Shown here one piece after another: positions 736-39,542 of a stretch of 64,000 bases of DNA. The notes under the pieces are model-generated. The model ran no database searches. It had not been told where the DNA came from and saw nothing but the letters and a program-made list of their open reading frames with translations. The position numbers were made by a program, and so were the translations under genes. Each line of letters starts with the position of its first letter. Position 1 is the stretch's first letter. Source of the DNA: Bacillota bacterium (GTDB lineage: Bacteria > Bacillota > Sulfobacillia > JAJYWN01). Where the stretch lies: contig JAJYWN010000016.1 of the NCBI GenBank assembly GCA_021791495.1, forward strand, positions 38,970-102,969, given 5' to 3'.

Positions 736-2943
736 TTAGAGGGCGTAGTCCGACGCGAAGCGCGCGATGTGCCGGTCGTACCAATCGGTGACGAGGTCCA
801 GGCGTTCCACCCGGTGCCGCGGCTGTCCACCCCTGGACATCCCGTGGCTCTCGTCGGGGAAGCGGACGAAGACCACCTCGCGCCGCAGCCACTTCAGGGC
901 GGTGTAGAGCATCTCGCCCTGGGAGATGGGGCACCGGTAGTCGTTCTCCTGGTGCAGGATGAGGAGCGGCGTGCGCATGTTTTCCACATAGGTGATGGGG
1001 GAGAACTCCATGTAGCGTTGCAGGTCCTCCCAGGGTTTGGTTTGTGACTCCCAGAGGCCGTTCCTAACGCCCACGTCGCTGCTGCCCCACTGGAAGTAGC
1101 GGTCGCAGGTACTGCGCATGGTGATAGCGGCCTTGAAGCGCTCGGTGTGGCCGATGACCCAGTTGGTCATGTAGCCGCCGAAGCTCCCGCCGGCTACGGC
1201 CAGGCGATCGGGGTCGGCCACGCCCAGGGCGATGGCGTGATCGACGCCCGCCATGATGTCATCGTAATCCTTCCCACCATCCATGCGGCCGGCGGCTACA
1301 AAGGTTTGGCCGTAGCCCGAGCTGCTGCGGGGATTGGTGTAGACGACGGCGAACCCGGCCGTGGCGAGGAGTTGGAATTCAAGGAAAAAGGCGTGCCCGT
1401 AGGCGGAATGGGGACCACCGTGAATCTCCAGCATGGTAGGGTAACGGCGGCCGGCGATGTAACCGGCGGGTTTCAAGAGCCAGCCTTCGATGTCCCACCC
1501 GTCGGTACTCTTGTAGTTGATGGTCTCGACTTCGCCCAATTGGACCTGGTCTAGCAGGTCCTGGTTAACCTTGGTCAGGCGGACCTCGCCGTCCCGAATC
1601 AGGGCGTAGATGTCGCCCGGGATGTGGACCGTTGAAGAAGCCAGAGCCACCGTTCCACTATCCTTGGCCACGGAGAAGGAATAGACCGACCGCCCGCCGG
1701 CGGTGAGAGGGGTCACTTTCCCCGACGCCAGGTCAAGGCGCGACAGGTGGTCGCTACCTCCATCGTGGACGAGGAAAAGGAGGGTGGAACCGCCGGCGCT
1801 CCACACGGGGGTAACCGAAGCCCCTCCCATGCGGCAGTCGGAGCCGACACCGGGGGTGCAGTCACGGTCCAGGTCCGGTGTGAGGCAGACCGGTGGCAAG
1901 ACGGCCGGGCTTTCGCCCGCGCCACTGCCGGCGGCGCCCGTCAGCTCGGGGACATCCACCGCCCACAAGGAAGTCACGGTGGCGGCGCGGTATTTGCCGT
2001 CATGGCCAAGGTAGGCGATGCGGCAGCCGTCGGGGGACCAGGAGGGGTTGGAGCACGGGCCAAGGCTGGCCGTCAGTTTGACCGGTAGAGCCTTGGAGCC
2101 GTCCGCGTTCCGCCCCACCGGGAGGATATAGACGTCATTGAAGGAGACATAATCACGGTCGGGCGATGGGTTGGCCACGTAGGCGATGTACCGGCCGTCC
2201 GGAGACCAGGCCGCTCCGGCGCAGTCATAGTCGCCCGAAGTGACGGGCCAGGGCTCTCCTCCGTCCACCGGCACGACCCAGATGTGGTTCCACCTGCCGT
2301 CCCAGAAGCCCTCGCCGTCCATCTTATAGCGGAGGCGGGTGATGATCTTCACGTCACTCTCTTCGGCCTGCCCGCCTGCGGTGGCCCCGGCGCCGCCGTT
2401 GGTCCCGTTGGCGCCGGACACTGCCGCACCGGATACTGGCGCGCCGGACCCACCGGTCGCGCCGTTGGCGGCCGGCCCCGCCCCGCTCTCTTTCTTTCCA
2501 GAAGGATAGCGCCCTCCGGTGGCGCCGCTGTCTGCCACCTTATGGCTGAAAGCGATGAAGCGACCGTCCGGCGACCAAACGGGGTTGCCGGCTCCTCCCT
2601 TAATCTTCGTCAGCTGGCGGGCCTCACCGCCGTTGGCCGGCAGGAGCCAGATCTGTCGGTCACCGCCCCGGTCGGAAACAAAGGCAATGGTCTGTCCGTC
2701 GGGGGACCAGCGGGGGGAACTGTCCGACTTGGGGCCGCCCGAGAAAGGTTGGGGGGCCATTCCGCCGACCCCGGGCCCGGGCTCCGTCCCCACCATCCAA
2801 ATGGAGGAGCGATACTTCTTCTTATCATTTGGGTCGCAGATGGTTTGAACGTACGCGACCCTACCCCCGTCCGGGGAGATCTGCGGGTCACTCACCCATT
2901 TGAAGGAATAGAGGTCGGCCGATTTCAAGGGGCGCTTGTCCAT
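736..2943 (-). CDS. S9 family serine peptidase (acylaminoacyl-peptidase/YuxL-like) with beta-propeller
   Basis: WSPDG propeller repeats, IHGGPH, nucleophile GGSFGG, ENDYRC, DESHG. Start placed at ATG 2943 (MDKRPL) with GGAGGGTG RBS upstream. Confidence 0.92.
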   Translation of the reverse strand: MDKRPLKSADLYSFKWVSDPQISPDGGRVAYVQTICDPNDKKKYRSSIWMVGTEPGPGVGGMAPQPFSGGPKSDSSPRWSPDGQTIAFVSDRGGDRQIWLLPANGGEARQLTKIKGGAGNPVWSPDGRFIAFSHKVADSGATGGRYPSGKKESGAGPAANGATGGSGAPVSGAAVSGANGTNGGAGATAGGQAEESDVKIITRLRYKMDGEGFWDGRWNHIWVVPVDGGEPWPVTSGDYDCAGAAWSPDGRYIAYVANPSPDRDYVSFNDVYILPVGRNADGSKALPVKLTASLGPCSNPSWSPDGCRIAYLGHDGKYRAATVTSLWAVDVPELTGAAGSGAGESPAVLPPVCLTPDLDRDCTPGVGSDCRMGGASVTPVWSAGGSTLLFLVHDGGSDHLSRLDLASGKVTPLTAGGRSVYSFSVAKDSGTVALASSTVHIPGDIYALIRDGEVRLTKVNQDLLDQVQLGEVETINYKSTDGWDIEGWLLKPAGYIAGRRYPTMLEIHGGPHSAYGHAFFLEFQLLATAGFAVVYTNPRSSSGYGQTFVAAGRMDGGKDYDDIMAGVDHAIALGVADPDRLAVAGGSFGGYMTNWVIGHTERFKAAITMRSTCDRYFQWGSSDVGVRNGLWESQTKPWEDLQRYMEFSPITYVENMRTPLLILHQENDYRCPISQGEMLYTALKWLRREVVFVRFPDESHGMSRGGQPRHRVERLDLVTDWYDRHIARFASDYAL

Positions 2944-3357
2944 AGCTTGGTTCACCCTCCGAAAGGTTCGAGTGTAGGAGGTATTCGGGAGAAGCCATCT
3001 CTGTCCTTCAGGCCATCTTCGTCTGAACGGCGTCTGCGGCGGCCGGGACGGTGCGTGTGTAGTCCGCATTGGGGGGGTGGGGGGTATCCGCCGCCGCGGG
3101 GTCGTGGGAGTCAATTCGGGACACTTTTCCGAGACCAACATGGTATCTTGGGTTAACCCCCGGCCATTGTGCTGGCTTTCACAAGGAGGCGGCCGGCATC
3201 TCGGGGTGAGGATCACACTGTCTTGCTTGCATTTCCGCCTGCTAGAGAGCATGGGTCCACATCCGGGTTCCCGGGCGGCACGACAGTCCGGGGGTGGTTC
3301 GGACGGGGCACGAGGGGGGTCCGGACCTTGGCGGTGGAGGTCCGAGATGCCTCTCCA

Positions 3358-3618: not shown

Positions 3619-4245
3619 TCAGGCTGGAACGTATTTCTGGAACAGCTTCTCCGCCCGCTCCACGTTATAGATCCCGCAGACGCACGGCTGGGCGACCAGG
3701 ATGGCGGCCTGGCGCGGGGTGCGTTTGCCGGCTTTCACCTGGCCGATGAGGCGCTCCACCAAGTGACGTGAGACCATCCCGTGACCACACATGGTCAAGA
3801 ACTCCAAAGCCTCCTCGGACGGCAGGTCCCCGGTCTTCCCCCAGATGTTCAGGGATAGGTTTACGGAATGTGGCCTGATCTCTAGCTCGCGGGCCATATC
3901 TTCCACCTCGTCGATGAGCCCGGAGATAGTGATGGAGAGGCCCATGTCCAGCTCTTTCACACGCCGCACGAATTCGCGGACCTTGGCCTTGTCGGCGAAG
4001 GAGCAGCGCACGCGCGGGACGCCGGACAGCTTCTCCTTGATCTGCTCGAAAGTGGCACCCGAGTAGATGGTCCCGCATTCATAGGACCCGATGTTCGTGG
4101 GGCCCAGTTCGTAGATGATGTCCAGCATCTTCAGGAGCTTCTCTTTCGAACCTTCCTGGTTGAACCCCACGGCCGGAGTGGCTAAGATTACATAATCATT
4201 TTGGAGCGATTCGGCGCTCCCGCGCCGGTGTAGAGAGTGCGTCAT
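3619..4245 (-). CDS. Uncharacterised Cys/His-motif protein (paralog 1), partner of the 4Fe-4S protein
   Basis: Starts MTHSLHR at ATG 4245. Motifs TMCGHGMV and CVCGIYN are shared with 5965-6714. Confidence 0.85.
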   Translation of the reverse strand: MTHSLHRRGSAESLQNDYVILATPAVGFNQEGSKEKLLKMLDIIYELGPTNIGSYECGTIYSGATFEQIKEKLSGVPRVRCSFADKAKVREFVRRVKELDMGLSITISGLIDEVEDMARELEIRPHSVNLSLNIWGKTGDLPSEEALEFLTMCGHGMVSRHLVERLIGQVKAGKRTPRQAAILVAQPCVCGIYNVERAEKLFQKYVPA

Positions 4246-4249
4246 TGCC

Positions 4250-4978
4250 TTACACCTCCGATAGGGGGCGGCCCAGGCCCAGATTGATCTTGGCATTCGG
4301 CCGGACCGTGAAGCCCAGCTTTTCGACATCTTCCCGCACCGGGATGCGGCCATCGGGGTCATACCGGGTGATGAGGTCGAGCGAGAAGACGGTGTCCAAC
4401 TCCTTGGCCACGCGCCGGACCTCGGTCAAGATAGCCTCCAGCCGCTCGGCCGGGGCGGTGAATTCGATGATGCAGGAGATCATCCGGAGTCCCAGGCGCC
4501 TCGCCGGAAAAGTCCCGTTCGCCGGGTCATCCATGATGTGGGACAGCGGGCTCATGTGCTCCCAAACGATGCCGATACGGGCCAGGGCCGTGGTGACCTT
4601 CTGGACCTCGGCCAGAGTGGTCCCCAGGCAGGGACGGCCCATTTCCAAGGCCACGCCGATCTCCCCACGTTTGACGCGGCCGGTGACGTCGTTGGTCTTG
4701 ACCTCCTCCGTGCCCCGTCCGGGTATCTTCGTCACCTTGTGGGTGGTCATCGGGTCGGAGAAGTATTTGGAAATACCCCTTTCCGTCTCGAAGAGGTTGG
4801 GATCGTCGTAGATGGCCCCCGTGGGGCACTTCACGATGTAGCGGCGGCCGCAGGTCCCGCACTCGGCGCAGATATCCAGATCGATGCTGGCTTTCTTCCC
4901 AGACACACTGATGGCTCCCACGGGGCAGTAGGGAACGCAGATGCCGCAGCCGTTGCACTTTTCTTGGTCGATCAGCAC
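4250..4978 (-). CDS. 2x[4Fe-4S] ferredoxin-domain protein with uncharacterised C-terminal domain (paralog 1)
   Basis: CNGCGICVPYCP and CAECGTC...CP; PGRGTEEVKTNDVTGRVKRGE; GTG start with AAAGGAG RBS. Confidence 0.9.
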   Translation of the reverse strand: MLIDQEKCNGCGICVPYCPVGAISVSGKKASIDLDICAECGTCGRRYIVKCPTGAIYDDPNLFETERGISKYFSDPMTTHKVTKIPGRGTEEVKTNDVTGRVKRGEIGVALEMGRPCLGTTLAEVQKVTTALARIGIVWEHMSPLSHIMDDPANGTFPARRLGLRMISCIIEFTAPAERLEAILTEVRRVAKELDTVFSLDLITRYDPDGRIPVREDVEKLGFTVRPNAKINLGLGRPLSEV

Positions 4979-5026
4979 GAGTCGTAGTCTCCTTTCTATG
5001 GGGTGGGCAGGGAGAGGCGTGGGGCC

Positions 5027-5962
5027 CTATGGATTCTTTCGGACCTCTGCCAGGGCCGCAAGAATCTCAGCGCGTCCGCCGGCCCCTTGGCCTCCGAAGC
5101 GGTGGTCCAGACCAAGGGCGGCGATACCCGCCAACTTGTCCCGTTCGGCGCGGGCCATGGTGGCGTCGGCGCCGATCTCGGTCAGGAAATCCACCACGTC
5201 GGCCATCTCCTCCGACCGGCGGGCCGCGTGCAGCGCAGCGCCCGCCAGGCGGTAATCCACGAGTCGAGCGAAGGGCCTTCCGGGCTCATCCAGGGTGGAC
5301 ATGACTTGGTCCAGCACACCGTAGGCCGAGGCCGCCGTGGCCAGTTCCCAGATGAGAGAGTCCAGACCTTTCTGGTAGATGCTACGGAACATCTTGATGG
5401 CCGACGCCTCACCGGGGATCTGGCCGACGACTTTCACATTCAGGCCCAGGGCGGGAGCGGCTTCCGCCAAGGCGGCCGAACCCGGTCCGGACAGCAGCAT
5501 GGGCACGTGTACTCCGTCGACGGCGAAACGGCCGACCACCGCCGCGTCGACGAAACGCCCGCCCCGCGCCGCTACTTTCTCGCCGAGGGCGCGTTTCTTC
5601 GGAGGGCTCATGGTATTCACGTCAACGAAGGTCTTTCCGGCCAACCCCATTCCGGCCGCCTCGATGACCGCCGAAGCACCGGCGGCCGTGACTGCCGAGA
5701 AAACGAGGTCCACCCCAGACTGCGTCACCGCCTCGAAGGCGGAGTGACACAGCTTCACTCCGGTCTCTTGGGCTCTCTGAAGGATCAGCGCCGCGCGGGA
5801 ACCGGCCGCGGGACCGGTCCCGCCGGAAACGGGAGCGTCACGGTCGAAGGCAACTACCATGGGGGGCTGGGGAAGGGCCCGCCACCCCTTGGCCAGCTCA
5901 TAGCCGGCCTCGCCCAGCCCCAGAAGGGCGATGACGCCGGACGCGGAGGTTGGAGCCGCCAT
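5027..5962 (-). CDS. NAD(P)-dependent oxidoreductase, 6-phosphogluconate/3-hydroxyisobutyrate dehydrogenase-like (DUF1932 type)
   Basis: Rossmann GLGEAG; FVDVNTMSP; FVDAAVVG; ASAIKMFRSIYQKG; HAARRSEEM. Confidence 0.85.
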   Translation of the reverse strand: MAAPTSASGVIALLGLGEAGYELAKGWRALPQPPMVVAFDRDAPVSGGTGPAAGSRAALILQRAQETGVKLCHSAFEAVTQSGVDLVFSAVTAAGASAVIEAAGMGLAGKTFVDVNTMSPPKKRALGEKVAARGGRFVDAAVVGRFAVDGVHVPMLLSGPGSAALAEAAPALGLNVKVVGQIPGEASAIKMFRSIYQKGLDSLIWELATAASAYGVLDQVMSTLDEPGRPFARLVDYRLAGAALHAARRSEEMADVVDFLTEIGADATMARAERDKLAGIAALGLDHRFGGQGAGGRAEILAALAEVRKNP

Positions 5963-5964
5963 GG

Positions 5965-6714
5965 CTACTCCTCCTCGCCGGCTCCGGCACCACTGCCGCT
6001 ATCGCCACCTCCATCCTCAAAGCCGGCACAGCTTTCACATCCGGTCGGCGGTGTCGCCGTCGCCCCGCCGTCACGGGCGGCTCGAGCCGCGGCCTTGGCG
6101 GCGGTGGCCATCTCACCCACGAGCTTGCCGGCGCGGACGTGGTTGAAAATGCCGCAGGGGCACAATGCGGCCAGTTTCTTCCCGGCCTCCTCCGCCGAGA
6201 TTCTCCCGGCACGCACCTCTCGGGCCATCTTTTCCACGATCCCGGGCGCCACCATGTGGTGCCCGCACATCGTGGTTACGGCCAGAGTCTCCTGCTTCGG
6301 CAGGAGCTCCTTCTTGCCCCAGACTCCCAGGGAGAAGTTGATGGTGTGCGGGGTGAGCCCGGCGGCCTTGCACGCCGGAAGGACGTAGTCCAAGGGTCCG
6401 CTGATGACCACGGACAGACCAGTGTCGGCGGTCTTGACCTGCTTCAGAAACTCCGTCACATGTTCGGGGGCGTTCAGAACCCCGCGCAGACGGGACTGGT
6501 TGGAGATGCGGGACTTTACATAATCAACCGGGTATAGCAGAATTGACCCGGACTTGACGTCTCCCCAGTTCGAGCAACCCACGGCCTCGGCGGCGGCCAG
6601 GAAGGCGCGGGCCTTCTCGGCGATGCCGGTGTCGTTGATACCTTTCGCCTGGTACATAAGCCAGACGTAGTCTTCGTTCTGGTATTCACCTTGGCGGTGA
6701 AGGGTGTGTGTCAT
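5965..6714 (-). CDS. Uncharacterised Cys/His-motif protein (paralog 2) with low-complexity CxxC tail
   Basis: Starts MTHTLHR at ATG 6714; TMCGHHMV; CPCGIFN; tail contains GCESCAG. Confidence 0.85.
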   Translation of the reverse strand: MTHTLHRQGEYQNEDYVWLMYQAKGINDTGIAEKARAFLAAAEAVGCSNWGDVKSGSILLYPVDYVKSRISNQSRLRGVLNAPEHVTEFLKQVKTADTGLSVVISGPLDYVLPACKAAGLTPHTINFSLGVWGKKELLPKQETLAVTTMCGHHMVAPGIVEKMAREVRAGRISAEEAGKKLAALCPCGIFNHVRAGKLVGEMATAAKAAARAARDGGATATPPTGCESCAGFEDGGGDSGSGAGAGEEE

Positions 6715-6805
6715 GGTGGCCGTCTTCCTCCTTGTCTTCTTCCGTGTCGGCCAGATGCCGTCAGGTGCGTCTGGTTCGTCAGATGGGCCAGATGGGCCAG
6801 GTGCG

Positions 6806-7534
6806 CTAGTCCGTAACCAGGGGCCGGCCCAGGCCGACGTTGACTTTCCCTCTGGTGGGCACGGGCAGCCCGTACTTGGGCAGCTCGGCGATGGCCGCGC
6901 TGCGGCCTTCTTCGTCCACCCGCAGCACCAGTCCAAGGGAGAAGACGGTATCGATCTCTTTTTCCACGCGCTGGAGGGCCTGGATGACCCCGCCCATATT
7001 GGACGTGGGAGTCTTACCTTCGATGATGATGGAGAGGAAGTACTTGTCCCCGATGCCGGGCAGGAACTCACCGGTCTCCAAGTTGGTCATGAGCTTGCCG
7101 ATGGGGCTGACGTGGCCGGGCTCCAGTTTCAGCCCGGCGGCGCACACGGCCCGGGCCACTTTTTCGACGTCCCGGAGATAGCAGCCTACGCCAGGGCGCC
7201 CCATGTCGATGGCGAACCCGACCTCACCCTTCTTCACTCGCCCCGTCACATCGTTGGTTTTCGACTCCTCCGTACCCCGGCCCGGAACCCCTGTTTCAGC
7301 CGTGGTCACCGTGGGGTCGGAAATGACGTGGCAAAACTCGTCGATGAAGGCCTCCAGCGAACTGGGGGTCATGGCGTCTTGTGGGCAGGCCTTGTTGCGC
7401 ACACAAACGTAGCAGTCGGTGCAGCGATGTGGGTCCACCCCGGCCTTCCGGTTCTTGACCTTGATGGCTCCCACGGAGCAATAGGCCAGGCAGTCGCCGC
7501 AGCCGGTACACTTCTCCTGATCAATGAGAATCAA
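6806..7534 (-). CDS. 2x[4Fe-4S] ferredoxin-domain protein (paralog 2)
   Basis: CTGCGDCLAYCS and CTDCYVC...CP; PGRGTEESKTNDVTGRVKKGE; TTG start at 7534 after GGAGGTG RBS. Confidence 0.9.
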   Translation of the reverse strand: MILIDQEKCTGCGDCLAYCSVGAIKVKNRKAGVDPHRCTDCYVCVRNKACPQDAMTPSSLEAFIDEFCHVISDPTVTTAETGVPGRGTEESKTNDVTGRVKKGEVGFAIDMGRPGVGCYLRDVEKVARAVCAAGLKLEPGHVSPIGKLMTNLETGEFLPGIGDKYFLSIIIEGKTPTSNMGGVIQALQRVEKEIDTVFSLGLVLRVDEEGRSAAIAELPKYGLPVPTRGKVNVGLGRPLVTD

Positions 7535-7593
7535 GCGGTCGCACCTCCGTTTCAATCCACATTCCCGCGCGGGGAATGACGAGAGACAAGCGG

Positions 7594-9105
7594 TTACTGG
7601 GTGACGCCCGCGGTCTTACGGATCCGGGCCACGATCCCACGGGCCAGGGGAATCAGGAGCATGACGATGGCCACCACTATCAGAACCCTCGAAATGGGGC
7701 GCGTGAAGAAGATGGCCAGGCTGCCGTGGGAGATCATCAGCGACTGGCGCAGAGTCATTTCCAGCTGACTGCCAAGCACCAGAGCCAGGACCAGCGGCGC
7801 CTGAGGGTACCCGAGCTTGCGCATGACGAAGCCGAGAATGCCGAAAACCAGCATGATCCAGACGTCGTTGAGGTTGTTATTGAGGCTGTATACTCCGACC
7901 ACACAGAACACCACGATCAAGCTGGACAAGATCCATTGGGGGATGCGAAGAATCTGGACGAAGGTGGGGATAAACGCGATATTCAAGATGACCAGCAAGA
8001 CGTTGCCGATGTACATGCTGGCAATCAAACCCCAGACGAACTGGGGATTCTTTTCGAAAAGCAGCGGCCCCGGGCGCAGGCCCAGCATCATCAGGGCTCC
8101 CATCATCACCGCGGTGGTGGCCGATCCGGGCACGCCCAAGGTCAACAGGGGCACCATGGCGCCCACCGAGGCGGCGTTATTAGCCGATTCAGGTGCCGCG
8201 ACGCCGACGATTTCGCCCTTACCGAAGGTCTCCGGGTGCTTGGAGAGTTTCTTCTCCGAGGCGTAAGACAAGAACGACGCAATGGTGGCTCCAGCCCCGG
8301 GTAGGACGCCGACCACGAATCCCAAGAAGGTCGACCGCAAGATGGCCCAACGGGTAGCGACCCAGTCCTTGGCCTTCGGGAAGACGTTCTTCAAGGCCAG
8401 ATCGGCTTTCTGAATCTCCAGGGGCTGGATTTTCTCGACGCTGGCCAGGACCTCAGTGATGCCGAACAGCCCCATGGCGATGGGCAGGAAATCGAAACCG
8501 CCCAGCAACTGCCGTGTGCCCAAGGTGAAGCGGGCCGACCCACTCACGATGTCGATGCCCACGATGGAGAGAAAGAGTCCGGCCAGGGTGGCGATGATGG
8601 TCTTCGAAGGGGACCCCTCGGTCAGGCCGGCCAGAGCCGTGAACCCCAAGAGCATCAGCGCCACGTACTCCGGGGGGCCGAAAGACAGGGCCCAACTGGC
8701 CAGGGTGGGCGCCAGGAACATGAAAATAACCTGGCTGATGGTGCCGGCGATGAAGGACCCGAGAGCGGCGATCCCCAAGGCCACACCGGCCCGGCCTTTA
8801 CGTGCCATCTGATACCCGTCGATGGTGGTCATGACCGATGAGGCTTCACCTGGGACGTTGATGAGGACCGAGGTGATGGTGCCGCCGTACATGGCTCCGT
8901 AGTAAATGCCGGCCAGCATGATGATGGCGGTGACCGGGTTCCGGCCGAAGGTCAGGGGTAGGAGAATGGCTACCCCGGCCGACGGGCCGATTCCGGGCAG
9001 GGCACCGATGATGGTGCCGAAAACGACTCCGATGAAACAGAACAGCAGGTTCACCGGGCTCAAGGCGACCCCGAAACCCATCGCCAGGTTACTCAGGACA
9101 TCCAT
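7594..9105 (-). CDS. tctA: Tripartite tricarboxylate transporter large permease
   Basis: GALPGIG, YYGAMYGGTITSVLINVPGE, AAPESANNA, GVPGSATTA. Confidence 0.95.
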   Translation of the reverse strand: MDVLSNLAMGFGVALSPVNLLFCFIGVVFGTIIGALPGIGPSAGVAILLPLTFGRNPVTAIIMLAGIYYGAMYGGTITSVLINVPGEASSVMTTIDGYQMARKGRAGVALGIAALGSFIAGTISQVIFMFLAPTLASWALSFGPPEYVALMLLGFTALAGLTEGSPSKTIIATLAGLFLSIVGIDIVSGSARFTLGTRQLLGGFDFLPIAMGLFGITEVLASVEKIQPLEIQKADLALKNVFPKAKDWVATRWAILRSTFLGFVVGVLPGAGATIASFLSYASEKKLSKHPETFGKGEIVGVAAPESANNAASVGAMVPLLTLGVPGSATTAVMMGALMMLGLRPGPLLFEKNPQFVWGLIASMYIGNVLLVILNIAFIPTFVQILRIPQWILSSLIVVFCVVGVYSLNNNLNDVWIMLVFGILGFVMRKLGYPQAPLVLALVLGSQLEMTLRQSLMISHGSLAIFFTRPISRVLIVVAIVMLLIPLARGIVARIRKTAGVTQ

Positions 9106-9132
9106 TGGTCTTCACTCCTTGAGGGTGAACTG

Positions 9133-9606
9133 CTAGAGTCCCAATTTCTCGAAAAGGAGTCCCACCGGGAACCGGACCTCCAATAGACGGGCGAAAACGA
9201 GGTAGAAGGCCAGTGGGACCCCGATCCCCCAGCGGATGGCCGACCGCCAAGAGGCCTTGGCCTCGTAGCGTAGCATGAACGCCATGAATAGGGCCAGGCC
9301 GATCAGCATCCCGAAATACCCGGTAATAAGCACCATGGCTACGGACCCGGCCGTCACCCGCAGGACACGCCCGAGTCCCTCACGGCCTTCGATGAACGGC
9401 AGACCCGGCCCGCCGGAATTCCGGTCTATCAGGAGACCGCCGAAGACAATGACCCCGCAGACGATCAGGAACAAGCCCACCCAAAACGAAGCGAAGCCTG
9501 GGCCGGGCACGCCTTCAAGGTAATAGGACAGGCCCAGCGAGGCAACGGTGATGTATGTGCCCACCGCCGTGATGGCAGAAGCCATGATGATGTTGGCCGT
9601 CCTCAA
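9133..9606 (-). CDS. tctB: Tripartite tricarboxylate transporter small permease
   Basis: 157 aa, about 4 TM, GVPGPGF motif, C-terminal LLEVRFPVG; lies between tctC and tctA. Confidence 0.88.
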   Translation of the reverse strand: MRTANIIMASAITAVGTYITVASLGLSYYLEGVPGPGFASFWVGLFLIVCGVIVFGGLLIDRNSGGPGLPFIEGREGLGRVLRVTAGSVAMVLITGYFGMLIGLALFMAFMLRYEAKASWRSAIRWGIGVPLAFYLVFARLLEVRFPVGLLFEKLGL

Positions 9607-9692
9607 GCGATGCTCACTTCCTTCCGAAAACGCGCGGCTCCAGGTGAACCAAGCTGCCCGGGGCGCTGTAAGACGCTGGATTGAGAGGCGAG

Positions 9693-9725
9693 AGGAGAGG
9701 CTGCCGGAGCATGGCAGCCTCTCCT
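9693..9725. other. 13-bp perfect hairpin between tctC and tctB
   Basis: AGGAGAGGCTGCC-ggagcat-GGCAGCCTCTCCT; no U-tract on the minus strand. Confidence 0.6.
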
Positions 9726-9741
9726 TCTCTAGACGGACTCG

Positions 9742-10737
9742 TTACTTGATCTGCCCCAGGGCCTTGAACACTGTGGTGTACAGGTCGTTCATCTGTTTGA
9801 CGGCGGTGGCGAAGGTCTTCGAATCCATGAAAGCCGGGGTGATCAGGTTCTTCTCAACATAGTCCTTGGTCCACTTGGAGCTCTGAGACATCTTCTGGAA
9901 AGCGGTTTCAAGGATCTTCACGTCCTCAGGCGGGAAGTCCTTGGGACCGAGCACGCCACGGAGTTGCTTGAAGATGACTGTCCCATAACCCAGTTCCTTG
10001 AAGGTCGGGGTGTCCTTCAGCGCGCCGCCCAGGCGGACGTCGGTGGCGACGGCCAACGGGATCATCTTTTTGGCTTCGATCTGAGCCATGGCCTCGCCGG
10101 GGTTGGCGATGGTCATGTCGGTGTGGCCGCCCATGACGTCGGTGACGGCCTCAGCGCCGCTGTTGAACGGGATGTAGTTGAAGGTGACACCGGCCTCCTT
10201 TTCAAGGAGATAGGTCACCACACGGTCATCGGAGGTGGCGCCGGTCCCGGCCACGCTGAGGGTCTTGGGCGGAGCCTTCTTGGCCGCGTCGATGATGTCT
10301 TTCAGGGACTTGTACTTCGACTTGTCGTTCACGAGGAGGACGTAAGTGTCATAAGCAAGCCCGACGATGGGGGTGAAGGAGTCGGTCTTGACGTCGGACT
10401 TTCCCAGGAGCGGGGTGGTCCACCAGCTGGAGCTGACGGTGCCGAGGGTGTAAGGAACGTCGGCCTTCTGCTTGTCGCGGATGTAGGCGTAGCCCACGGC
10501 GCCGGAGCCACCGGCCTTATTCATGACAGTCAGGGGCTGCTTGAGAAGTTTCTCAGCGTCAAAGACCGAAGCGATGGCACGGGCCAACAGGTCGCTGCCG
10601 CCGCCCGGGTTGAACGGGACCACAAACTCGATCGCCTTGCTCGGGTAGGGTTTGGAGCCGCAACCGGCCAGGAAAGTGGTAGCCAAGAGTGCGGCGACCA
10701 TGGCCAGCGCCAGGAAACGGACTCTTGCGGACTTCAC
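9742..10737 (-). CDS. tctC: Tripartite tricarboxylate transporter substrate-binding lipoprotein (Bug family)
   Basis: Lipobox LAGC; YPSKAIEFVVPFNPGGGSD; NKAGGSG; YIPFNSGAEA. Confidence 0.93.
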   Translation of the reverse strand: MKSARVRFLALAMVAALLATTFLAGCGSKPYPSKAIEFVVPFNPGGGSDLLARAIASVFDAEKLLKQPLTVMNKAGGSGAVGYAYIRDKQKADVPYTLGTVSSSWWTTPLLGKSDVKTDSFTPIVGLAYDTYVLLVNDKSKYKSLKDIIDAAKKAPPKTLSVAGTGATSDDRVVTYLLEKEAGVTFNYIPFNSGAEAVTDVMGGHTDMTIANPGEAMAQIEAKKMIPLAVATDVRLGGALKDTPTFKELGYGTVIFKQLRGVLGPKDFPPEDVKILETAFQKMSQSSKWTKDYVEKNLITPAFMDSKTFATAVKQMNDLYTTVFKALGQIK

Positions 10738-11150
10738 TAAACGGACCTCCTTCCACTTCTAGGGAACCTCAATCTCCGTCACGACAACTCAGTCACGACA
10801 ACGCCAAAGTCCTGGGAGCAACAGGAAAATAAGGAATGTCCTCTCGCTGGTTTTCCTAGAATCACCTCTTTTCCTTTGGTCACTAGAGGAATTAGAGGCA
10901 AAAAGCAGGCCTTTTGGCTATCTTTTGTTATCATACCACATTTTGCATCATTATCACTAGAGAAGAGCCACTTGGGACTAATGTCACAGTACCCCTCCCA
11001 CTAGGCCGTCCGTGGCAAAGAAGACCAGTTAAAGGTGGCAAGCCGGCGCCGGACTAGATTCAGGCAGGATGCGGGGCCGGAGAGGTGGAAGCAATCCACC
11101 GTCATGTCGACCGCATAACGGTAGCTGGAAATAGGAGAGGGGGACGGCAG

Positions 11151-13298
11151 GTGGGCCCATACAGCATCCTTCTGCTCGGCGCGCCGGCGATGCAGGGGCC
11201 GGACGGCCCCGTCCCCATCCCGAACATTAAGGCCCAAGCCCTGCTCTGGTACTTGGCGGAGCAAGGCGACCGGCCGTTCTTCCGCGCCCACCTGGCATCG
11301 CTCCTATGGGACTCCGACAGCGAGACCGATCGGCGGAACAGCCTGAACTCAACTCTTTCCAGGATGCGCAAAGCCCTTCCACTATGGCCTTTTCTCTCCG
11401 ACCGCGACCGGTTGGCGTGGGACCGGGGGAAAGGGGTAGCGGTGGACACGGAGCAGCTGGCCGCACTGCTCAGGACGGTGCGCCGGGAGGCGCGGGCTTT
11501 TGGAGCCGGTCCGTCGCGCGCCGATCGCGACCGCCTGGCGGCCGCCGTTGCCCTCTGGCGGGGGCCCTTTCTGGCGGGCTTTGAAGTTCCCGGCGACACT
11601 CTTTACGACGAGTGGTTGGACCAGAAACGTAACCTGTATGAGACTCTGACGCTGGATACATTGTCACAGTTGATCCAAATGGATGAAATGGCCGCGGCGT
11701 GGCCCGAGATGGCCTCCCGGGCCAGGCAGGCCATGGCCATCGACCCCCTTCAGGAGACCTTTCACCGCTCATTGATGACCGCTCTCTATCAGCTGGGCGA
11801 CCGCGCCGCGGCCTTGGCTCAGTATTCGGAATGCCGGCGCCTTCTGGCGGAAGAACTCGGGACGGAACCTGACCCGGCCACCAGCGCCCTCCGTGACATC
11901 ATTGCCAAAGGCCGCTTGCTGCGCCCATCGGGAGTGTCTCTTGGGGGCCTGACAGAAATGGTTGGTACTTCCAGCCCAGGCGTTCGCGACTCCGGGCTCG
12001 CGGCTCCCGGCACGGTGGTAGAGGGCCTGCCGGCGGCGACCGCGCCGGCCGGCCCCGTGCCGGCCGGTGATAGACCCAAGCTGCCCTCAAGCCAGACTGT
12101 CGGCCCAGCTGCCGGCCCAGTCGCGGTCCGGGTGGGTGCGGTCGCCACCGCCTTTGCCAAGCGGACCCTATTGGTCGGGCGGGAGAGGGAACTCGAATCC
12201 TTGTCCGGCGCCATGACCGCCACGGAGCGGAATCGGCAGACCGTCATCTTCCTGTGCGGTGAGGAGGGCGCCGGCAAGACTCGGCTGGTGGAGGAGATCG
12301 AAGCTCGCTGGCGGAGAGAAAGACCACCGGGATCCTGGTTCACCGCTCGCTGCGCCGAGGAGTTGCGGAATCTGCCGCTGGCGCCCCTGGTGGCGGCGTT
12401 GGACCTGGCGGTCAAGGGACTCGTGACTAACCGGGCAGGTCTTAGTTCAGACACCGTTGCCACCTTGGCCCGGTTGTTCCCTGAGAGCATAGGCCCGGTG
12501 GCCGGTTTCCCGTTGCTTCCCGAACCGGGCGCCGATGAATCACGCCGGCGTTCCTTTCAGGCGCTGGCGGATTTCCTGGAGGCTTTGCCGCATCCCACGG
12601 TGTTGGTGATCGAGGACAGCCAGTGGGCAGACGCCGATACTTGGTCTTTCATCGCGTTCCTGGCACGGCGCGCCACGAACAGTCCGCCGGTTGTCCTGGT
12701 CACGGCCCGGTCGAGCGACCTTCCCGAAGGAGGAAGGGCCCTGCTTGAACGGATGCAGCACGAGGGAGAGTTGACGCGCCTGGAACTTGGCCCTTTGTCC
12801 GGAGCGGCCGTGCAGGCGTTGGCGGTGGCCGCCGGGATGCCGCTCTCCCCAGCCGCGACGAAGACCCTGTCCTCCTTCACCGGCGGAAACCCGTGGTTCA
12901 CCGTGGAGACCCTGCGAGCCGCGGCGGACACCGGGTGGCCTCAGACAGTAGTGGGTGAGGGTCGGGTCGACAGTGGCAGCCCGGTCTGGCCAGTGCCCGC
13001 CGCGATCCGAGCAAGCGTGTCCACCCGGTTGGCGCGACTGTCCCCGGCGGCCCGCGAGGTGGCTTTGGTCGCTTCCGTCAGTCCGGAGGGCCTGCCTTTT
13101 GAGGATATCCTGCAGGCCACGGCGCTTTCGGAGTTCGATGCGCTAGAGGGTCTGGAAGTCCTGGTCCAGTCGGGTACCCTGGAAGAGCGCACGACAGGGG
13201 AGATTGCTTTCCGGTGCGATCTGATCCGACAGGCCGTGCTGGCGTCCATGAGCAGGGCGCGTCGGGAAAGCCTCGGGCGAAAGACGGCTTCCAAGTAA
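11151..13298 (+). CDS. SARP/AfsR-type regulator: wHTH + BTAD + AAA ATPase
   Basis: KAQALLWYLA, AAVALWRGPFL, DPLQETFHRSLMTALYQLGDRAAALAQY, Walker A GEEGAGKT, Walker B LVIEDSQWAD. GTG 11151 follows AGGAGAGGGG; the ORF track starts at 11085. Confidence 0.88.
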   Translation: MGPYSILLLGAPAMQGPDGPVPIPNIKAQALLWYLAEQGDRPFFRAHLASLLWDSDSETDRRNSLNSTLSRMRKALPLWPFLSDRDRLAWDRGKGVAVDTEQLAALLRTVRREARAFGAGPSRADRDRLAAAVALWRGPFLAGFEVPGDTLYDEWLDQKRNLYETLTLDTLSQLIQMDEMAAAWPEMASRARQAMAIDPLQETFHRSLMTALYQLGDRAAALAQYSECRRLLAEELGTEPDPATSALRDIIAKGRLLRPSGVSLGGLTEMVGTSSPGVRDSGLAAPGTVVEGLPAATAPAGPVPAGDRPKLPSSQTVGPAAGPVAVRVGAVATAFAKRTLLVGRERELESLSGAMTATERNRQTVIFLCGEEGAGKTRLVEEIEARWRRERPPGSWFTARCAEELRNLPLAPLVAALDLAVKGLVTNRAGLSSDTVATLARLFPESIGPVAGFPLLPEPGADESRRRSFQALADFLEALPHPTVLVIEDSQWADADTWSFIAFLARRATNSPPVVLVTARSSDLPEGGRALLERMQHEGELTRLELGPLSGAAVQALAVAAGMPLSPAATKTLSSFTGGNPWFTVETLRAAADTGWPQTVVGEGRVDSGSPVWPVPAAIRASVSTRLARLSPAAREVALVASVSPEGLPFEDILQATALSEFDALEGLEVLVQSGTLEERTTGEIAFRCDLIRQAVLASMSRARRESLGRKTASK

Positions 13299-13511: not shown

Positions 13512-15272
13512 ATGGCATTGACTGGTGGGCGCTACGCCGACAAGAAAGCCATCGACGTCCTACTGACCACGGAGGGCACGTATCCGGTGGCCCGTGGCGG
13601 CGTGGGCACTTGGTGCGACACGCTGATTCGAGGCGTACCCGGCGTGAATTACAGCGTCTACGTGGTCATGGCCCATCCCTACCTACCGGACCGTTATAAG
13701 ATTCCGAGCGGCGTCTCTGTGTTGCGTGTCCCGATGTGGGGCACGGAGGAGCCTACCGAACACCTGGACGTGCCGTTCTCGGAGATCTACGAACGGAAAC
13801 TGCGCACCACCCCGTCCGTGCTGACGGCGGATTTCCTGCCGATGGTCGACAGTTTCATGACCGACCTCTGGAACCCGGACCCAGATGGACACAGACTGGG
13901 TCAAACGATGTTCAGCATGTATCGCTGGTTCAAGATTCACGACTACATGGAGGCCATGAAGTCCCGTGAGGTCTGGGACTTCTTCATCCGGGGCCTACGC
14001 GAAGAGCGCTGGAACAAATTCCCGTCCCCGCCCACTTTGACCGATTGCGTCCAGTCCATGGGCTGGCTCTACCGCTTCTTCGTCGTTCTCACTACGCCCG
14101 TACCCCTTGCCGACGTGACCCATAGCTCGGCGGCGGCCTTCTCCGGGCTACCGGGAGTCCTGGCGAAACTGGACCGGAAGACACCGTACCTTCTGTCCGA
14201 GCACGGAGTGTACCTGCGCGAGCAGTACCTGTCCGTGGGAAAGTCGAAGATGACTGCCTACGCCAAGCAGTTTTTGATTGGACTGGTGCGCGGCACGGTC
14301 ACGGCCAACTACGCCCACGCCGACGTGGTGGCGCCCGTCGCCGCCTTCAACGCCAGGTGGGAGAGACGGTTCGGCGTGCCGGAGGACAAGATCCGCGTCA
14401 TCTATAATGGCGTCGATCCCAACGCCTTCAAGCCACGGCCGCGTCCCGAGAACACGGTGCCGACCGTCGTCACGCTGGCGCGCATCGACCCGCTGAAAGA
14501 CATCCTGACGCTGATCCGGTCAGCCGCCTACGTCCGCGAAAGGATGCCCGAGGCCAAGTTCGTGGTCTACGGCGGGGTTAGCGTACCCAGCTACTATCGG
14601 GAATGCCTCGAACTCCGCGACCAGTTGGGTCTACAGGAGAGCTTCATTTTCGCCGGGCATGTGGACGATGCACCGTCCGCCTACGCCAGCGGGGACCTGG
14701 TAGTTTTGTCAAGTGTCAGTGAGGGCTTCCCCTACACCGTGGTTGAGGCGATGATGTCCGGCCGCGCCGTGGTGGCCACGGACGTGGGCGGCACCAGGGA
14801 GGCCTGCGCGGGGGCCGGCCTCTTGGTTGAGCCCGGCAATCACGCGGAGATGGGCGAAGCAATCCTCCGTCTGCTCCATGATCCAGCCCTACGCGCGTCG
14901 CTGGCCGCGGAAGCCCGCGAAAGAGCGCTGGCTTACTTCACGATTCAGCAGAATCTGAACCTATATAGAAAAGCTTATGAGGATCTGGCGCAGCCAGAGG
15001 AAGTTTCGGTCGATGTGTCGAAATTTATCGGTCGCCGCCGCATGCTTGCGTTGGTGCGTGCCAGGGCCTTGCAGGCCATCGGCCGAAACGCGGAGGCCAT
15101 TCGGGAATACCGCGTCGCGGTCGACTTGGCACCTACGGACGCTACGGCGCCGGCGCTCCTTCTAACCATAGCCGAGCTTTATCTATCGCGCGGGGAAATT
15201 CAGCGCTCATGGCAAGAGATGGAAAGAGCGGAAGCGCTTGCGGCGGCGATTCGCCAACGGAGGGCAGGCTGA
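13512..15272 (+). CDS. pelF: PelF-like GT4 glycosyltransferase (DUF3492) with C-terminal TPR-like extension
   Basis: LLTTEGTYPVARGGVGTWCD, LSEHGVYLRE, IYNGVD, RIDPLKDILTL, SEGFPYTVVEAM; GGAGG RBS. Confidence 0.88.
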   Translation: MALTGGRYADKKAIDVLLTTEGTYPVARGGVGTWCDTLIRGVPGVNYSVYVVMAHPYLPDRYKIPSGVSVLRVPMWGTEEPTEHLDVPFSEIYERKLRTTPSVLTADFLPMVDSFMTDLWNPDPDGHRLGQTMFSMYRWFKIHDYMEAMKSREVWDFFIRGLREERWNKFPSPPTLTDCVQSMGWLYRFFVVLTTPVPLADVTHSSAAAFSGLPGVLAKLDRKTPYLLSEHGVYLREQYLSVGKSKMTAYAKQFLIGLVRGTVTANYAHADVVAPVAAFNARWERRFGVPEDKIRVIYNGVDPNAFKPRPRPENTVPTVVTLARIDPLKDILTLIRSAAYVRERMPEAKFVVYGGVSVPSYYRECLELRDQLGLQESFIFAGHVDDAPSAYASGDLVVLSSVSEGFPYTVVEAMMSGRAVVATDVGGTREACAGAGLLVEPGNHAEMGEAILRLLHDPALRASLAAEARERALAYFTIQQNLNLYRKAYEDLAQPEEVSVDVSKFIGRRRMLALVRARALQAIGRNAEAIREYRVAVDLAPTDATAPALLLTIAELYLSRGEIQRSWQEMERAEALAAAIRQRRAG

Positions 15273-15297
15273 ACGGCACGGAAAGGGTGGGTGTCAC

Positions 15298-15834
15298 GTG
15301 AGCGGTACGACATCCTTACGGCGGCGCATGATGGGGTACTCCCCTGCCGCCGTGGCCGAAGCGTTGCGGCAAGGCCAGGAACGCCATAACCAGGAGATGG
15401 AGCGTCTCCGGCAGGAGCTCGAGAAGTTGCGGGAGAAATCGGCGGCCCTGTCCAGGCAGATTTCGGCGGCCGAGGCCAAAGCCCAGAGCACCGACGTCCT
15501 GGTCCACACTTTGACCGCCCGTATCCTGGAATGGGTTAATCAGCGGGCCGGTGCCGTTAAGGCCCTTGCTGAGCGTGATACCCGGGCCGAGAGTGAACTG
15601 CGGTCCGAATTGGAGAGGCTGCACGCCGTGCTGACGCACCTTCAGGAATCTCAGTCCAGGTTTGGCAATGAACTCAGCAGTCTGATGCGGCGCTTCCGCG
15701 ATGAGGTCGTGTCCTTGCGGGTCGGACTTCCGTCATCCTCGCCGGCGAACAGCGCGTTGTCTGAAGTGGCGGCCGGGCCACGGACCCAGATGCCTTCTCT
15801 TCCAGGGGAACGGAAGGAGTCCGCTATCAGATGA
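15298..15834 (+). CDS. DivIVA-like coiled-coil protein
   Basis: N-terminal RRRMMGYSPAAV resembles the DivIVA F-x4-GY-x3-V head, followed by a heptad coiled coil; GTG start. Confidence 0.6.
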   Translation: MSGTTSLRRRMMGYSPAAVAEALRQGQERHNQEMERLRQELEKLREKSAALSRQISAAEAKAQSTDVLVHTLTARILEWVNQRAGAVKALAERDTRAESELRSELERLHAVLTHLQESQSRFGNELSSLMRRFRDEVVSLRVGLPSSSPANSALSEVAAGPRTQMPSLPGERKESAIR

Positions 15835-38435: not shown

Positions 38436-39542
38436 CTAGGCTTGCGGCGGCGACGGCGGAACTGGCGGCGTCGGTGCAGCCGGTGCAGTCGGTGCAGCCG
38501 GTGCAGCCGGTGCAGCCGGTGCAGTCGGTGCAGTCGGTGCAGCCGGTGCAGCCGGTGCAGCCGGTGCAGCCGGTGCAGCCACGTTGACCTGGGAACCGGT
38601 GTTGGCCCCGGCATCGAGACCGACACCCGCCCGGGAGTCAGGCCGCCTGAACAGCCTGGGAAGCGCGACCAAGAGGACGCCGGCGGCCAGCACGACGGCC
38701 CCGGCCAGGATTACCCTGGACTCCACGCCTCCGACTGCGTCACTTACCAATGCCATCCGCACCTCGGGTTTGATGGGGGCCAGCATGATCGAGGCGGGAT
38801 CATTCGGACCGCCCTTGCCGACGTTGGCCACGGCTTTCTGCGCCACGGCCAGCAGCTTCGGTGCCCCGACCAATGCCTCCGCCAGAAGCCCTCCGCCCCC
38901 AAGGACGCACATGAATCCCAAGGGACGGGCGGCCCGGCGCGACGCTCCCCGCACCAGCCATATCAAAAGGCCCAATGCGGCGCAGACACCGATGGCCGCC
39001 GGGACGGCGATCTGGCGGTAGTGCCAGTATTTGCGGGCCTGCTGCCACTGGGTGTCGCTCCAGTTGATGCTCTTGGCCAGGTCCACCGTATCGGGGATGG
39101 CGCCGCCTATCCCTTGTTGGATGCCGGTCAGGTCCATGCCTGGCGCCGCCTTTTTGGCTTCGGCGAGCAGAGTGTCTTTCAGCTCTTTGAGGGGTACGGT
39201 GATGGTGGCCTTTCCCGTACTGCTGAGAACCTTCTTGGCCTGGCTCACCACGCTGCGCGCCTGCGTCAGAAACCACTGCTCCGAAAGAGTGGCCGAAAGG
39301 ACCTTCTCTACCGTAGCCCGCATCTCGGGAGTATCCGCGCCGTGCTCGACGAAGCTCCTGACCATGTCGGCCTTAAATGCGGTCAGGACCTGGTGCTTCT
39401 CGATGAGGTCGATGTAGTAGTTGGGCTCGGCCGCGGTGGCGCTGACGGCCGCCAGCGTCCCGGTGGCGAGAAGCGCGGGTACGAGTAAGACACCAAGGAT
39501 GAGTGTGGTCAGCCATCTGACAACGGCCAGGAAGGTCTTCAC
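38436..39542 (-). CDS. Hypothetical membrane protein with C-terminal (AAP/TAP)12 tail
   Basis: N-terminal TM, helical soluble region, three further TMs; convergent with the nuclease gene. Confidence 0.75.
38472..38579. repeat. 9-bp tandem repeat CGGTGCAG(C/T) x12 inside the CDS
   Basis: 12 units counted; encodes AAP/TAP on the minus strand. Confidence 0.95.

Follow-up and report, generated by a model that had tools for sequence, protein, structure and literature searches.

A widespread, undescribed two-protein iron-sulfur family tied to tripartite tricarboxylate-type importers

A transporter operon with a duplicated two-gene module

What is the role of the iron-sulfur (Fe-S) proteins that are encoded together with a tripartite tricarboxylate-type (TTT) importer in a Bacillota bacterium of the lineage JAJYWN01? 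The locus lies within a stretch of 64,000 nucleotides (positions 38,970 to 102,969 of contig JAJYWN010000016.1, GenBank assembly GCA_021791495.1), here called the window, to which all coordinates refer unless another contig or locus is named. TTT transporters are abundant; to our knowledge, few have known ligands and almost none is understood in anaerobes or Gram-positives. The proteins in question, which we have termed A and B, constitute an undescribed, widespread two-protein Fe-S family that is tied to TTT importers.

From the listing of open reading frames (ORFs) and Pfam searches, the gene order on the minus strand is tctC-tctB-tctA-A1-B1-DUF1932-A2-B2. The gene tctC (9742..10737) specifies the substrate-binding lipoprotein of 331 aa (PF03401, 103.6 bits, E 1.8e-29), tctB (9133..9606) the small membrane subunit of 157 aa (PF07331, 47.8 bits, E 2.2e-12), and tctA (7594..9105) the large membrane subunit of 503 aa, matched over its full length (PF01970, 567.1 bits, E 2.6e-170). 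A1 (6806..7555; 249 aa) is a predicted 2x[4Fe-4S] ferredoxin extended by an ACT-like C-terminal domain, while B1 (5965..6714; 249 aa, i.e., a 208-aa core and a low-complexity tail) starts with MTHTLHR and represents what we call type 1 of the B family. An NAD(P)-binding oxidoreductase of 311 aa, DUF1932/6PGDH-like (5027..5962; PF09130 and PF03446), precedes A2 (4250..4978; 242 aa; Fer4 matches) and the type-2 family member B2 (3619..4245; 208 aa).

The intergenic gaps from tctC to B2 are 135, 27, 38, 91, 2, 48 and 4 nt. The initial annotation had described a co-directional tctC-tctB-tctA, Fe-S pair, oxidoreductase, Fe-S pair row with gaps mostly under 100 bp: all these genes were found, and six of the seven gaps are under 100 nt. 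Its view of a TTT importer coupled to undescribed Fe-S proteins and a DUF1932 dehydrogenase likewise agrees with the Pfam results and the tight spacing. The genes from tctC to B2 form a real operon, conserved elsewhere (see below), the spacing pointing to co-transcription.

A1 and A2 are 43% identical (E 1e-61), and B1 and B2 38% (E 1e-43); the “Fe-S pair” is thus a duplicated two-gene module consisting of true paralogues. The longest ORFs for B1 and B2 (368 and 247 aa) were dropped, as they run into A1 and A2 and all homologues begin at MTH; the one for B1, which starts at 7071 and overlaps A1, was judged to be spurious.

A and B are an obligate pair, spread over several phyla

We have compared 65 loci with 78 B genes, detailed in the section on genomic neighbourhoods. 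A directly precedes B on the same strand for 70 of the 78; one B gene occurs in reversed order (on contig C56 of the window's own genome), and the seven others lie at contig edges or their partner was missed by the gene caller. The median distance between the A stop and the B start is 3.5 nt, and 13 pairs overlap by 1–4 nt. An exhaustive search with hidden Markov models yielded natural B-A fusions (P0321, 397 aa; P0386, 476 aa) and a fusion of B with a Fer4_11 domain (P0285). Because of this translational coupling and the natural fusions, we regard A-B as an obligate pair.

Clustered at 50% identity, the B family has 861 representatives that pass a threshold of E<=1e-3 and 242 that pass E<=1e-30, and A has more than 2600 homologues. 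Carriers belong to several, mostly anaerobic phyla. They include the named Bacillota Biomaibacter acetigenes, Moorella humiferrea, Sporolituus thermophilus and Thermoanaerobacterales, as well as Chloroflexota, Thermodesulfobacteriota, Synergistales, Armatimonadota, Rectinemataceae and one proteobacterial metagenome-assembled genome. In the window's own phylum, B occurs in 30 of the 401 sampled genomes (25 of 278 genera), usually in multiple copies; the genome of the window harbours eight A-B pairs and one fragment.

Sequence and predicted structure of the two proteins

A proteins are typically about 245 aa long. A1 matches Fer4 families in Pfam with E values between 1e-8 and 1e-10 and contains two CxxCxxC...C motifs, of which the cysteines C16, C19, C22, C26, C45, C48, C51 and C57 are invariant among 38 aligned sequences. 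In the structural model of A1 (predicted local distance difference test, pLDDT, 85), the N-terminal domain superposes on clostridial 2x[4Fe-4S] ferredoxins (Z 8–9.6; root-mean-square deviation 1.6–2.0 Å). Judged by these motifs, A carries two ferredoxin-type [4Fe-4S] sites. The remaining ~180 residues match no family, as Pfam (E<=10) and NCBIfam (E<=1) returned ferredoxin motifs only. The predicted fold of this C-terminal domain is an ACT-like beta-alpha-beta-beta-alpha-beta arrangement (Z ~6), the other best matches being weak and ZipA-like. It is preceded by an invariant loop, SDP...PGRGTEExKTNDVTGR, poorly predicted in the model, and followed in sequence by an equally invariant tail, KVNVGLGRPL (K-x-N-x-G-L-G).

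B proteins are ~205 aa long, nearly all between 200 and 220 aa, and align from residue 1. Searches with B1 and B2 gave zero matches in Pfam (E<=10) and NCBIfam (E<=1), and no relative in the PDB by sequence or profile, where only spurious matches to TAL-effector repeats, XPA and MetH surfaced. The B model is confident (pLDDT 90.8); its best Foldseek match has an E value of 0.054, and structural alignment against 48,161 chains (VIA-align) gave Z scores of at most 4.8, to generic ferredoxin-like and ACT-like folds that cover the N-terminal half only. In the ESM Atlas, B falls in unnamed “hypothetical protein” clusters only, the search of named clusters giving nothing usable. The literature that we searched held nothing relevant on DUF1932 together with TctC, on anaerobic TTT systems with 4Fe-4S proteins, or on the A-B sequence motifs.

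What marks the B family is a signature formed by the N-terminal MTHxLHR, C-G-H and C-x-C-G-x-x-N, conserved at 90–100% in 131 representatives that are at most 50% identical to one another. In this set, G151, H152, C185, C187 and N191 are conserved at 100%, C150 at 99%, R7 and D15 at 96%, H6 and H123 at 93%, and H3 at 90%. Both pairs in the window carry all motifs of the A-B family. A three-cysteine signature most commonly denotes a [4Fe-4S] cluster with one non-Cys ligand. The initial annotation had spoken of Fe-S pairs: A indeed has canonical Fe-S motifs, while for B, where there are only three invariant cysteines plus histidine, we infer the label from residues that point to a metal centre.

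Some features of the pair deserve separate mention. The tail of B1 (5965-6090, minus strand), ~40 aa long, low in complexity and rich in Ala, Gly and Glu, is missing in most homologues and common only to the closest relatives, P0001 and P0002. The C-terminal half of A and the N-terminal half of B may be ancient paralogues that assemble into a pseudo-symmetric heterodimer. Comparison of the B and A profiles with hhalign paired G(L/V)TPHTINxSLG with G(L/I)PxPxRGKVNVGLG, both located after the ACT-like domain; at 18% probability over 20 columns, we did not accept this match as homology of A and B.

The importer and the DUF1932 oxidoreductase

The Pfam scores of TctC, TctB and TctA are all above the curated cut-offs for these co-directional genes. 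The N-terminus of TctC has a hydrophobic stretch ending in an LAGC lipobox (judged by eye, without a predictor), and the gene has a good ribosome-binding site (GGAAGGAGG). From these sequence features, TctC is a predicted extracytoplasmic lipoprotein and TctCBA an importer of the TTT type. Along its whole length, TctC shares 42% identity with its counterpart in L003, a Chloroflexota locus that also has the A-B module, and its best relatives in the PDB are the TTT binding proteins 25hk, 4x9t, BugE (2dvz) and Bug27 (2qpq), with E values from 1e-42 to 1e-23. The known systems (Salmonella TctC, the Bordetella Bug proteins, AdpC, TphC) share with the window the full-length Pfam matches and the tctC-B-A order; however, the importer in the window sits with an uncharacterised Fe-S module rather than with known catabolic genes, and the PDB relatives of its TctC do not point to a ligand.

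The oxidoreductase combines a Rossmann N-terminus (GxGxxG) with a C-terminal DUF1932 domain (PF09130, 50.1 bits against a cut-off of 25), the NAD_binding_2 match being barely above threshold (PF03446, 22.9 bits against 21). This plan is shared with 4ezb (E 7.8e-28), 1i36 and 3qsg, its uncharacterised PDB relatives (E 1e-21 to 1e-28), and with the more distant beta-hydroxyacid dehydrogenases and imine reductases. It is 31% identical to the DUF1932 protein of L003. We know of no member of the DUF1932 subgroup with an assigned substrate.

Genomic neighbourhoods of A-B pairs

The survey drew on 29 further genomes of the phylum (54 places), on nine metagenome or isolate contigs and on the other pairs of the window's own genome. 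Stretches of up to 20 kb were fetched (~10 kb on either side where the contig allowed), genes were predicted with a simple gene caller, neighbours within 7 kb were clustered and the cluster representatives annotated by Pfam. The counts below are numbers of loci, out of 65, that contain a given family. The arrangement seen in the window proved to be kept in many other genomes across phyla; the initial annotation, which would have been refuted by a neighbourhood conserved in no other genome, thus withstands this check.

Transporter genes are the most frequent company: TctA in 35 loci, TctC in 33 and TctB in at least 23, with DctP in six. Regulators are of diverse families, comprising GntR/FCD (17), DpiA-like response regulators (7), sCache sensor kinases (5), IclR (5), PucR (4) and PrpR-like sigma-54 activators (4); CitA/DpiA-like two-component systems occur in 5–7 loci. 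Dehydrogenases include zinc-dependent alcohol dehydrogenase (Zn-ADH; 12), beta-hydroxyacid dehydrogenase (7), D-2-hydroxyacid dehydrogenase (6), iron-dependent alcohol dehydrogenase (3) and Ldh_2 (3). Among ferredoxin-linked enzymes and their associates, we found aldehyde:ferredoxin oxidoreductase (AOR; 10), subunits of 2-oxoacid:ferredoxin oxidoreductase (POR; 5, in each of which A-B directly adjoins the POR genes) and ADP-forming acyl-coenzyme A (CoA) synthetase (5). Fer4_11 proteins (7), Prismane-family proteins (5) and a flavoprotein with Pyr_redox_2 and Rubredoxin_C domains (4, plus a related partial one in L005) recur as well, as do M20 peptidase (9), M29/NicX-like proteins (6), PdxA (5), LarA (4), FAH (4), glycerate kinase (4), IlvD/Edd (3) and aconitase (3). 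According to precomputed Pfam annotation, the metagenome contigs add RraA-like, HpcH/HpaI and DHDPS aldolases, DUF1932 and a UxaA/GarD-type dehydratase, along with CoA-transferase and gamma-glutamyltranspeptidase.

In a FastTree phylogeny of the 78 B proteins, B1 belongs to a clade of 14 members (support 100), mostly encoded directly after tctA, and B2 to a clade of 21 (support 95) that holds the genes located, with their A partner, between GntR and tctC. The complete unit of type-2 pair, TctCBA and type-1 pair is found again in three Bacillota genera (L026, L029 and L030), in L008, in the Chloroflexota contig L003 and in L025. The accessory genes vary: DUF1932 is present in the window, L007 and L003, an RraA-like gene in L003 and L025, DHDPS and HpcH in L025, and FAH in L030. 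A minimal GntR-TctCBA-A-B unit occurs in the isolate Biomaibacter acetigenes (complete genome), where it adjoins an aconitase/phosphoenolpyruvate-mutase-family/PrpF/citrate-lyase cluster.

In addition, A-B forms part of a five-gene module (L057, L061, L066 and L076, also L040 and L005), often in one operon with TctCBA. It comprises a Fer4_11 polyferredoxin, a Prismane/CO-dehydrogenase-family protein of ~507 aa, A, B and the NAD(P)H flavoprotein with Pyr_redox_2 and Rubredoxin_C domains, and it resembles cooF-cooS-FNOR clusters into which A-B has been inserted.

Six further pairs and the fragment in the window's genome are located at C56:59812-68657, C62:93101-94614, C16:9203-10704, C21:34925-36605, C14:1-1175 and C36:2-325, where the letter C denotes contigs of that genome. 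On C56, a first A-B pair is followed by IclR, an arginase-family gene, TctCBA, an unannotated gene and a second pair in the rare order B then A, with M20 and PucR genes divergent. On C62, the order is DsbD, thioredoxin, A-B, an M29-like gene, an unannotated gene, a Liv-type ABC system and an isochorismatase-like hydrolase. On C16, genes for POR subunits and for an ADP-forming acyl-CoA synthetase follow PucR and A-B, and AOR is located upstream; on C21 the pair is accompanied by an amidase and M20. The company of amidohydrolases (M20, arginase-family, amidase, isochorismatase-like) or POR implies that the A-B family is not confined to hydroxy-acid contexts. The initial proposal of a pathway for a hydroxy-acid or sugar-acid is thus in part upheld: neighbourhoods elsewhere are rich in hydroxy- and sugar-acid enzymes, but six pairs in the genome itself lie beside amidohydrolases or POR.

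Three neighbours on C56 and C62 have no Pfam annotation. Two soluble proteins without Pfam match are encoded inside A-B/transporter operons (L018:9260-10213, on C56, 317 aa; L019:10081-10551, on C62, 156 aa), while a third, of 370 aa, encoded nearby (L019:8950-10062) and also without Pfam match, groups in BLAST comparisons with the M29/NicX-like neighbours found at other loci.

A proposed function for A-B

A-B is probably a new kind of enzyme, used by anaerobes on imported organic acids. The reading that we favour, with confidence that is about evenly balanced, is that the operon combines the uptake of a carboxylic acid with a ferredoxin-coupled oxidoreductase of a new family that acts on a hydroxy- or oxo-carboxylate. 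A and B would form a heterodimeric enzyme in which the two clusters of A connect a third metal centre, located in B, with an external carrier of single electrons. This centre, held by C150, C185 and C187 with H152, H3 and H6 nearby, would most likely be a [4Fe-4S] cluster in which one iron is open or bound by His. Ferredoxin would serve as the carrier or, in some genomes, NAD(P)H via a flavoprotein and polyferredoxin. The substrate, a di- or tricarboxylate with a hydroxy or oxo substituent that TctCBA has imported, would be bound at the B centre by invariant Arg, Lys, Asp and Asn of both subunits. In the window, the DUF1932 enzyme may act between the enzymes of type 1 and type 2, catalysing a hydroxy/oxo conversion that uses NAD(P).

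Electron transfer appears to be integral to the module, given the di-cluster domain of A, the fusion of B with a polyferredoxin domain, the adjacency to POR, the AOR neighbours and the five-gene Fer4_11/Prismane/A/B/flavoprotein module. These features speak against hydrolysis or hydro-lyase activity as the sole role. Ferredoxin-type clusters have potentials of about -400 mV and NAD(P)H-flavoprotein donors of about -320 mV, whereas hydroxy-acid/oxo-acid couples lie at about -190 mV, which makes a flow of electrons into the substrate more plausible than oxidation of the substrate. The reaction would therefore more likely be reductive, from low-potential carriers to the substrate. For the TTT-linked clades, the transporter types, the FCD and CitA-type regulators and the hydroxy-acid dehydrogenase, aldolase and glycerate-kinase neighbours suggest hydroxy- or oxo- di- and tricarboxylates. 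The minimal loci (regulator, TTT and one or two A-B pairs) fit conversion to a central metabolite or an electron sink that imports and reduces its substrate. For the self-contained catabolism put forward in the initial annotation, a transporter-plus-reductase electron sink is an equally good alternative.

Two known systems offer functional parallels. LutABC/YkgEFG oxidise hydroxy-acids with flavin-free Fe-S proteins under a GntR/FCD regulator. Like A-B, although by functional analogy only, they consist of several Fe-S subunits without a recognisable flavin domain, one of them with a 2x[4Fe-4S] ferredoxin-like domain as in A, and their genes accompany those for carboxylate uptake and for GntR/FCD regulators. 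They differ from A-B in having three subunits rather than two; A1, A2, B1 and B2 have no CCG, LUD/DUF162 or Fer4_8 matches in Pfam or NCBIfam, and the 3-Cys/His site of B is unlike CCG motifs. The reductive dehydroxylases of the IspH/IspG type, like other 3-Cys [4Fe-4S] enzymes, have three conserved cysteines and a cluster with one substrate-accessible iron, as suggested for B, and draw their electrons from ferredoxin-type clusters, as proposed for A-B; however, there is no sequence or fold similarity, and in A-B it is the partner subunit itself that contains the electron-transfer domain.

Several points weigh against a ferredoxin-coupled oxidoreductase. The reductive direction is argued from redox potentials only, and no flavin or other site for a hydride-handling cofactor is recognisable in A-B. 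The three cysteines of B could hold Zn, Ni or a [2Fe-2S] cluster, or be structural, and the ACT-like folds of the A C-terminal and B N-terminal domains are typical of ligand-binding regulatory modules. The neighbourhoods are heterogeneous, many of those in the window's genome featuring amidohydrolases, and one substrate class may not hold for the whole family. The surveyed loci come in part from related genomes and were annotated with a crude, home-made gene caller, so that the counts are descriptive, with no statistical test attached. Finally, a consensus scan for promoters and terminators picked up a single promoter-like site, upstream of tctC, and was otherwise uninformative.

A broader version of the ferredoxin-coupled reading can be formulated, albeit speculatively, and we consider it rather doubtful. 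A-B would be a new class of flavin-free, ferredoxin-driven reductases in which a 3-Cys/His centre of novel fold reduces or removes the alpha-substituent (hydroxyl, amino, unsaturation) of free carboxylic acids without CoA activation. It would function as a modular import-and-reduce electron sink, a selenium-free analogue of the Stickland reductases, and the main enzymatic partner of TTT importers in anaerobes; the family would have branched out to many specificities, the window's genome alone having eight pairs.

In Bacillota, Chloroflexota and other phyla, it is the A-B module that most often accompanies TTT transporters in the genome. Once its reaction is assigned, thousands of genes now listed as “hypothetical protein” or “4Fe-4S binding protein” would be annotated and clues to the ligands of an entire TTT branch would follow; new iron-sulfur chemistry acting on free carboxylic acids might also emerge. 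The minimal unit of Biomaibacter acetigenes makes the function directly testable in an isolate.

Alternative explanations

The main alternative is a redox-neutral Fe-S hydro-lyase in which the 3-Cys cluster of B serves as the Lewis acid; we think it unlikely. Imported tartrate isomers, aldarates or other 2,3-dihydroxy acids would be dehydrated to 2-oxo or 2-keto-3-deoxy acids, with the two or three paralogous pairs per locus serving different stereoisomers. Known Fe-S hydro-lyases (aconitase, L-serine dehydratase alpha/beta, TtdAB/class I fumarase, IlvD/Edd) act on hydroxy-carboxylates, some with two subunits; the three-cysteine signature is typical of their clusters, and their genomic company (aldolases, POR) is similar to that of A-B. 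The RraA-like, HpcH/HpaI, DHDPS and FAH neighbours (pyruvate-forming aldolase/oxaloacetate decarboxylase-type) could take the products, as could POR with ADP-forming acyl-CoA synthetase and, as enzymes that handle aldehydes, AOR, Zn-ADH and beta-hydroxyacid dehydrogenase. Loci with three pairs exist (L003, L025), and in L038 and L041 a LarA racemase takes the place of the second pair.

A hydro-lyase, however, leaves the invariant di-cluster ferredoxin domain of A unexplained, and the same holds for the B-Fer4_11 fusion and the NAD(P)H flavoprotein and polyferredoxin partners; the known enzymes are without a ferredoxin domain. A1, A2, B1 and B2 have no match to Aconitase, SDH_alpha/beta, Fumerase, ILVD_EDD or GD_AH in Pfam (E<=10) or NCBIfam (E<=1), and several of these loci already contain genuine dehydratases of the IlvD/Edd, aconitase or UxaA type. 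No hydro-lyase chain appeared among the Foldseek and VIA matches of the A and B models, a result still compatible with a distant relationship.

Less probable again, and in our estimation improbable, is an accessory role, in which A-B would be a PII/ACT-like pair with Fe-S clusters that senses ligand and redox state or relays electrons, and that either regulates or energises the adjoining transporter or acts as a dedicated ferredoxin for oxidoreductases encoded nearby. Such a role would suit the ACT/PII-like beta-alpha-beta-beta-alpha-beta folds predicted in the models of both proteins, the several classes of transporters that A-B adjoins (TTT, TRAP, ABC, ECF, EamA) in otherwise very diverse contexts, and the classical location of PII-like proteins beside the transporters they control. 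It is difficult to reconcile with the very high conservation of polar and charged residues (type-1 proteins being 60–65% identical across phyla), with pairs beside POR, an amidase or M20 whose examined flanks contain no transporter, and with loci where up to three paralogous pairs surround a single transporter; moreover, in the minimal loci of regulator, TTT and A-B, the imported compound would be left without a dedicated enzyme.

Lastly, a factor for Ni, Co or Fe handling or cluster maturation, with the free N-terminal Met-Thr-His of B as an ATCUN/HypA/RcnR-like hook, appears very improbable: the invariant M1-T2-H3 with H6, which we take to resemble Ni-binding motifs, the Cys/His site, and the location of A-B, in 4–5 loci, with a Prismane/CO-dehydrogenase-family gene on one side and an FAD/NAD oxidoreductase on the other would suit it, but most loci are without a metalloenzyme needing such a factor, eight copies in one genome and the linkage to TTT fit maturation poorly, and the annotated recurrent neighbours (most singletons being unannotated) include no Ni/Co transporter or CooC/HypB-type partner.

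The regulator and the region upstream of tctC

Divergent from tctC lies a gene for a SARP-type regulator (11085..13298, plus strand), of uncertain membership in the unit. Its BTAD domain (PF03704, 101.6 bits) is followed by AAA_16 (PF13191, 85.8 bits), as in large SARPs, whereas the Trans_reg_C match of 22.9 bits remains below the cut-off of 26.2. The gene is also directly upstream of a Pel-like operon on the same strand. Among 30 relatives it has only one weak match (33–40% identity, one genome), and the other A-B loci carry GntR/FCD, CitA/DpiA-like two-component, IclR or PucR regulators. The divergent gene reported in the initial annotation is therefore present but not conserved with the operon, and we have rejected it as a part of the conserved unit.

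The weak promoter-like site retrieved by the consensus scan (10930..10957, minus strand) consists of GTGATA and TATGAT separated by 16 nt, with a TG extension. Between this site and the gene, 41–64 nt upstream of the tctC start codon, there is an exact direct repeat, TTGTCGTGAC-TGAG-TTGTCGTGAC (10778..10801, minus strand; repeat units spaced by 4 nt). An exact search of the 4.2 Mb genome gives four copies of the 10-mer, whose sole tandem pair is the one upstream of tctC; the tandem repeat is a candidate operator for whichever regulator acts on tctC. With four exact copies and only one tandem pair, a genome-wide regulon motif was rejected.

Flanking genes and further arrangements

At the other end of the operon, 366 nt downstream of B2, an S9 prolyl-oligopeptidase-family peptidase is encoded (736..3252, minus strand; PF00326, 162.7 bits, and PD40 beta-propeller repeats). 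Its membership in the unit is uncertain: the peptidase gene is also found 3' of the module in L007 only, a near-identical contig that does not constitute independent evidence.

In L009, a duplicated block (4755-8986 and 13829-17892) flanks two A-B pairs and a gamma-glutamyltranspeptidase gene. Each block contains an M20 peptidase and DUF6754 together with three genes that have no annotation. Two of these three encode polytopic membrane proteins (4–5 predicted transmembrane segments), while the third protein, like DUF6754, has only N- and C-terminal hydrophobic segments. The block may specify an undescribed transporter.

L024 features a 620-aa fusion (16266-18128) of Aconitase_C with a LarA-type nickel-pincer racemase (Lar_N and LarA_C), which adjoins genes for an aconitase large subunit, an M29/NicX-like protein, TctCBA and an A-B pair.

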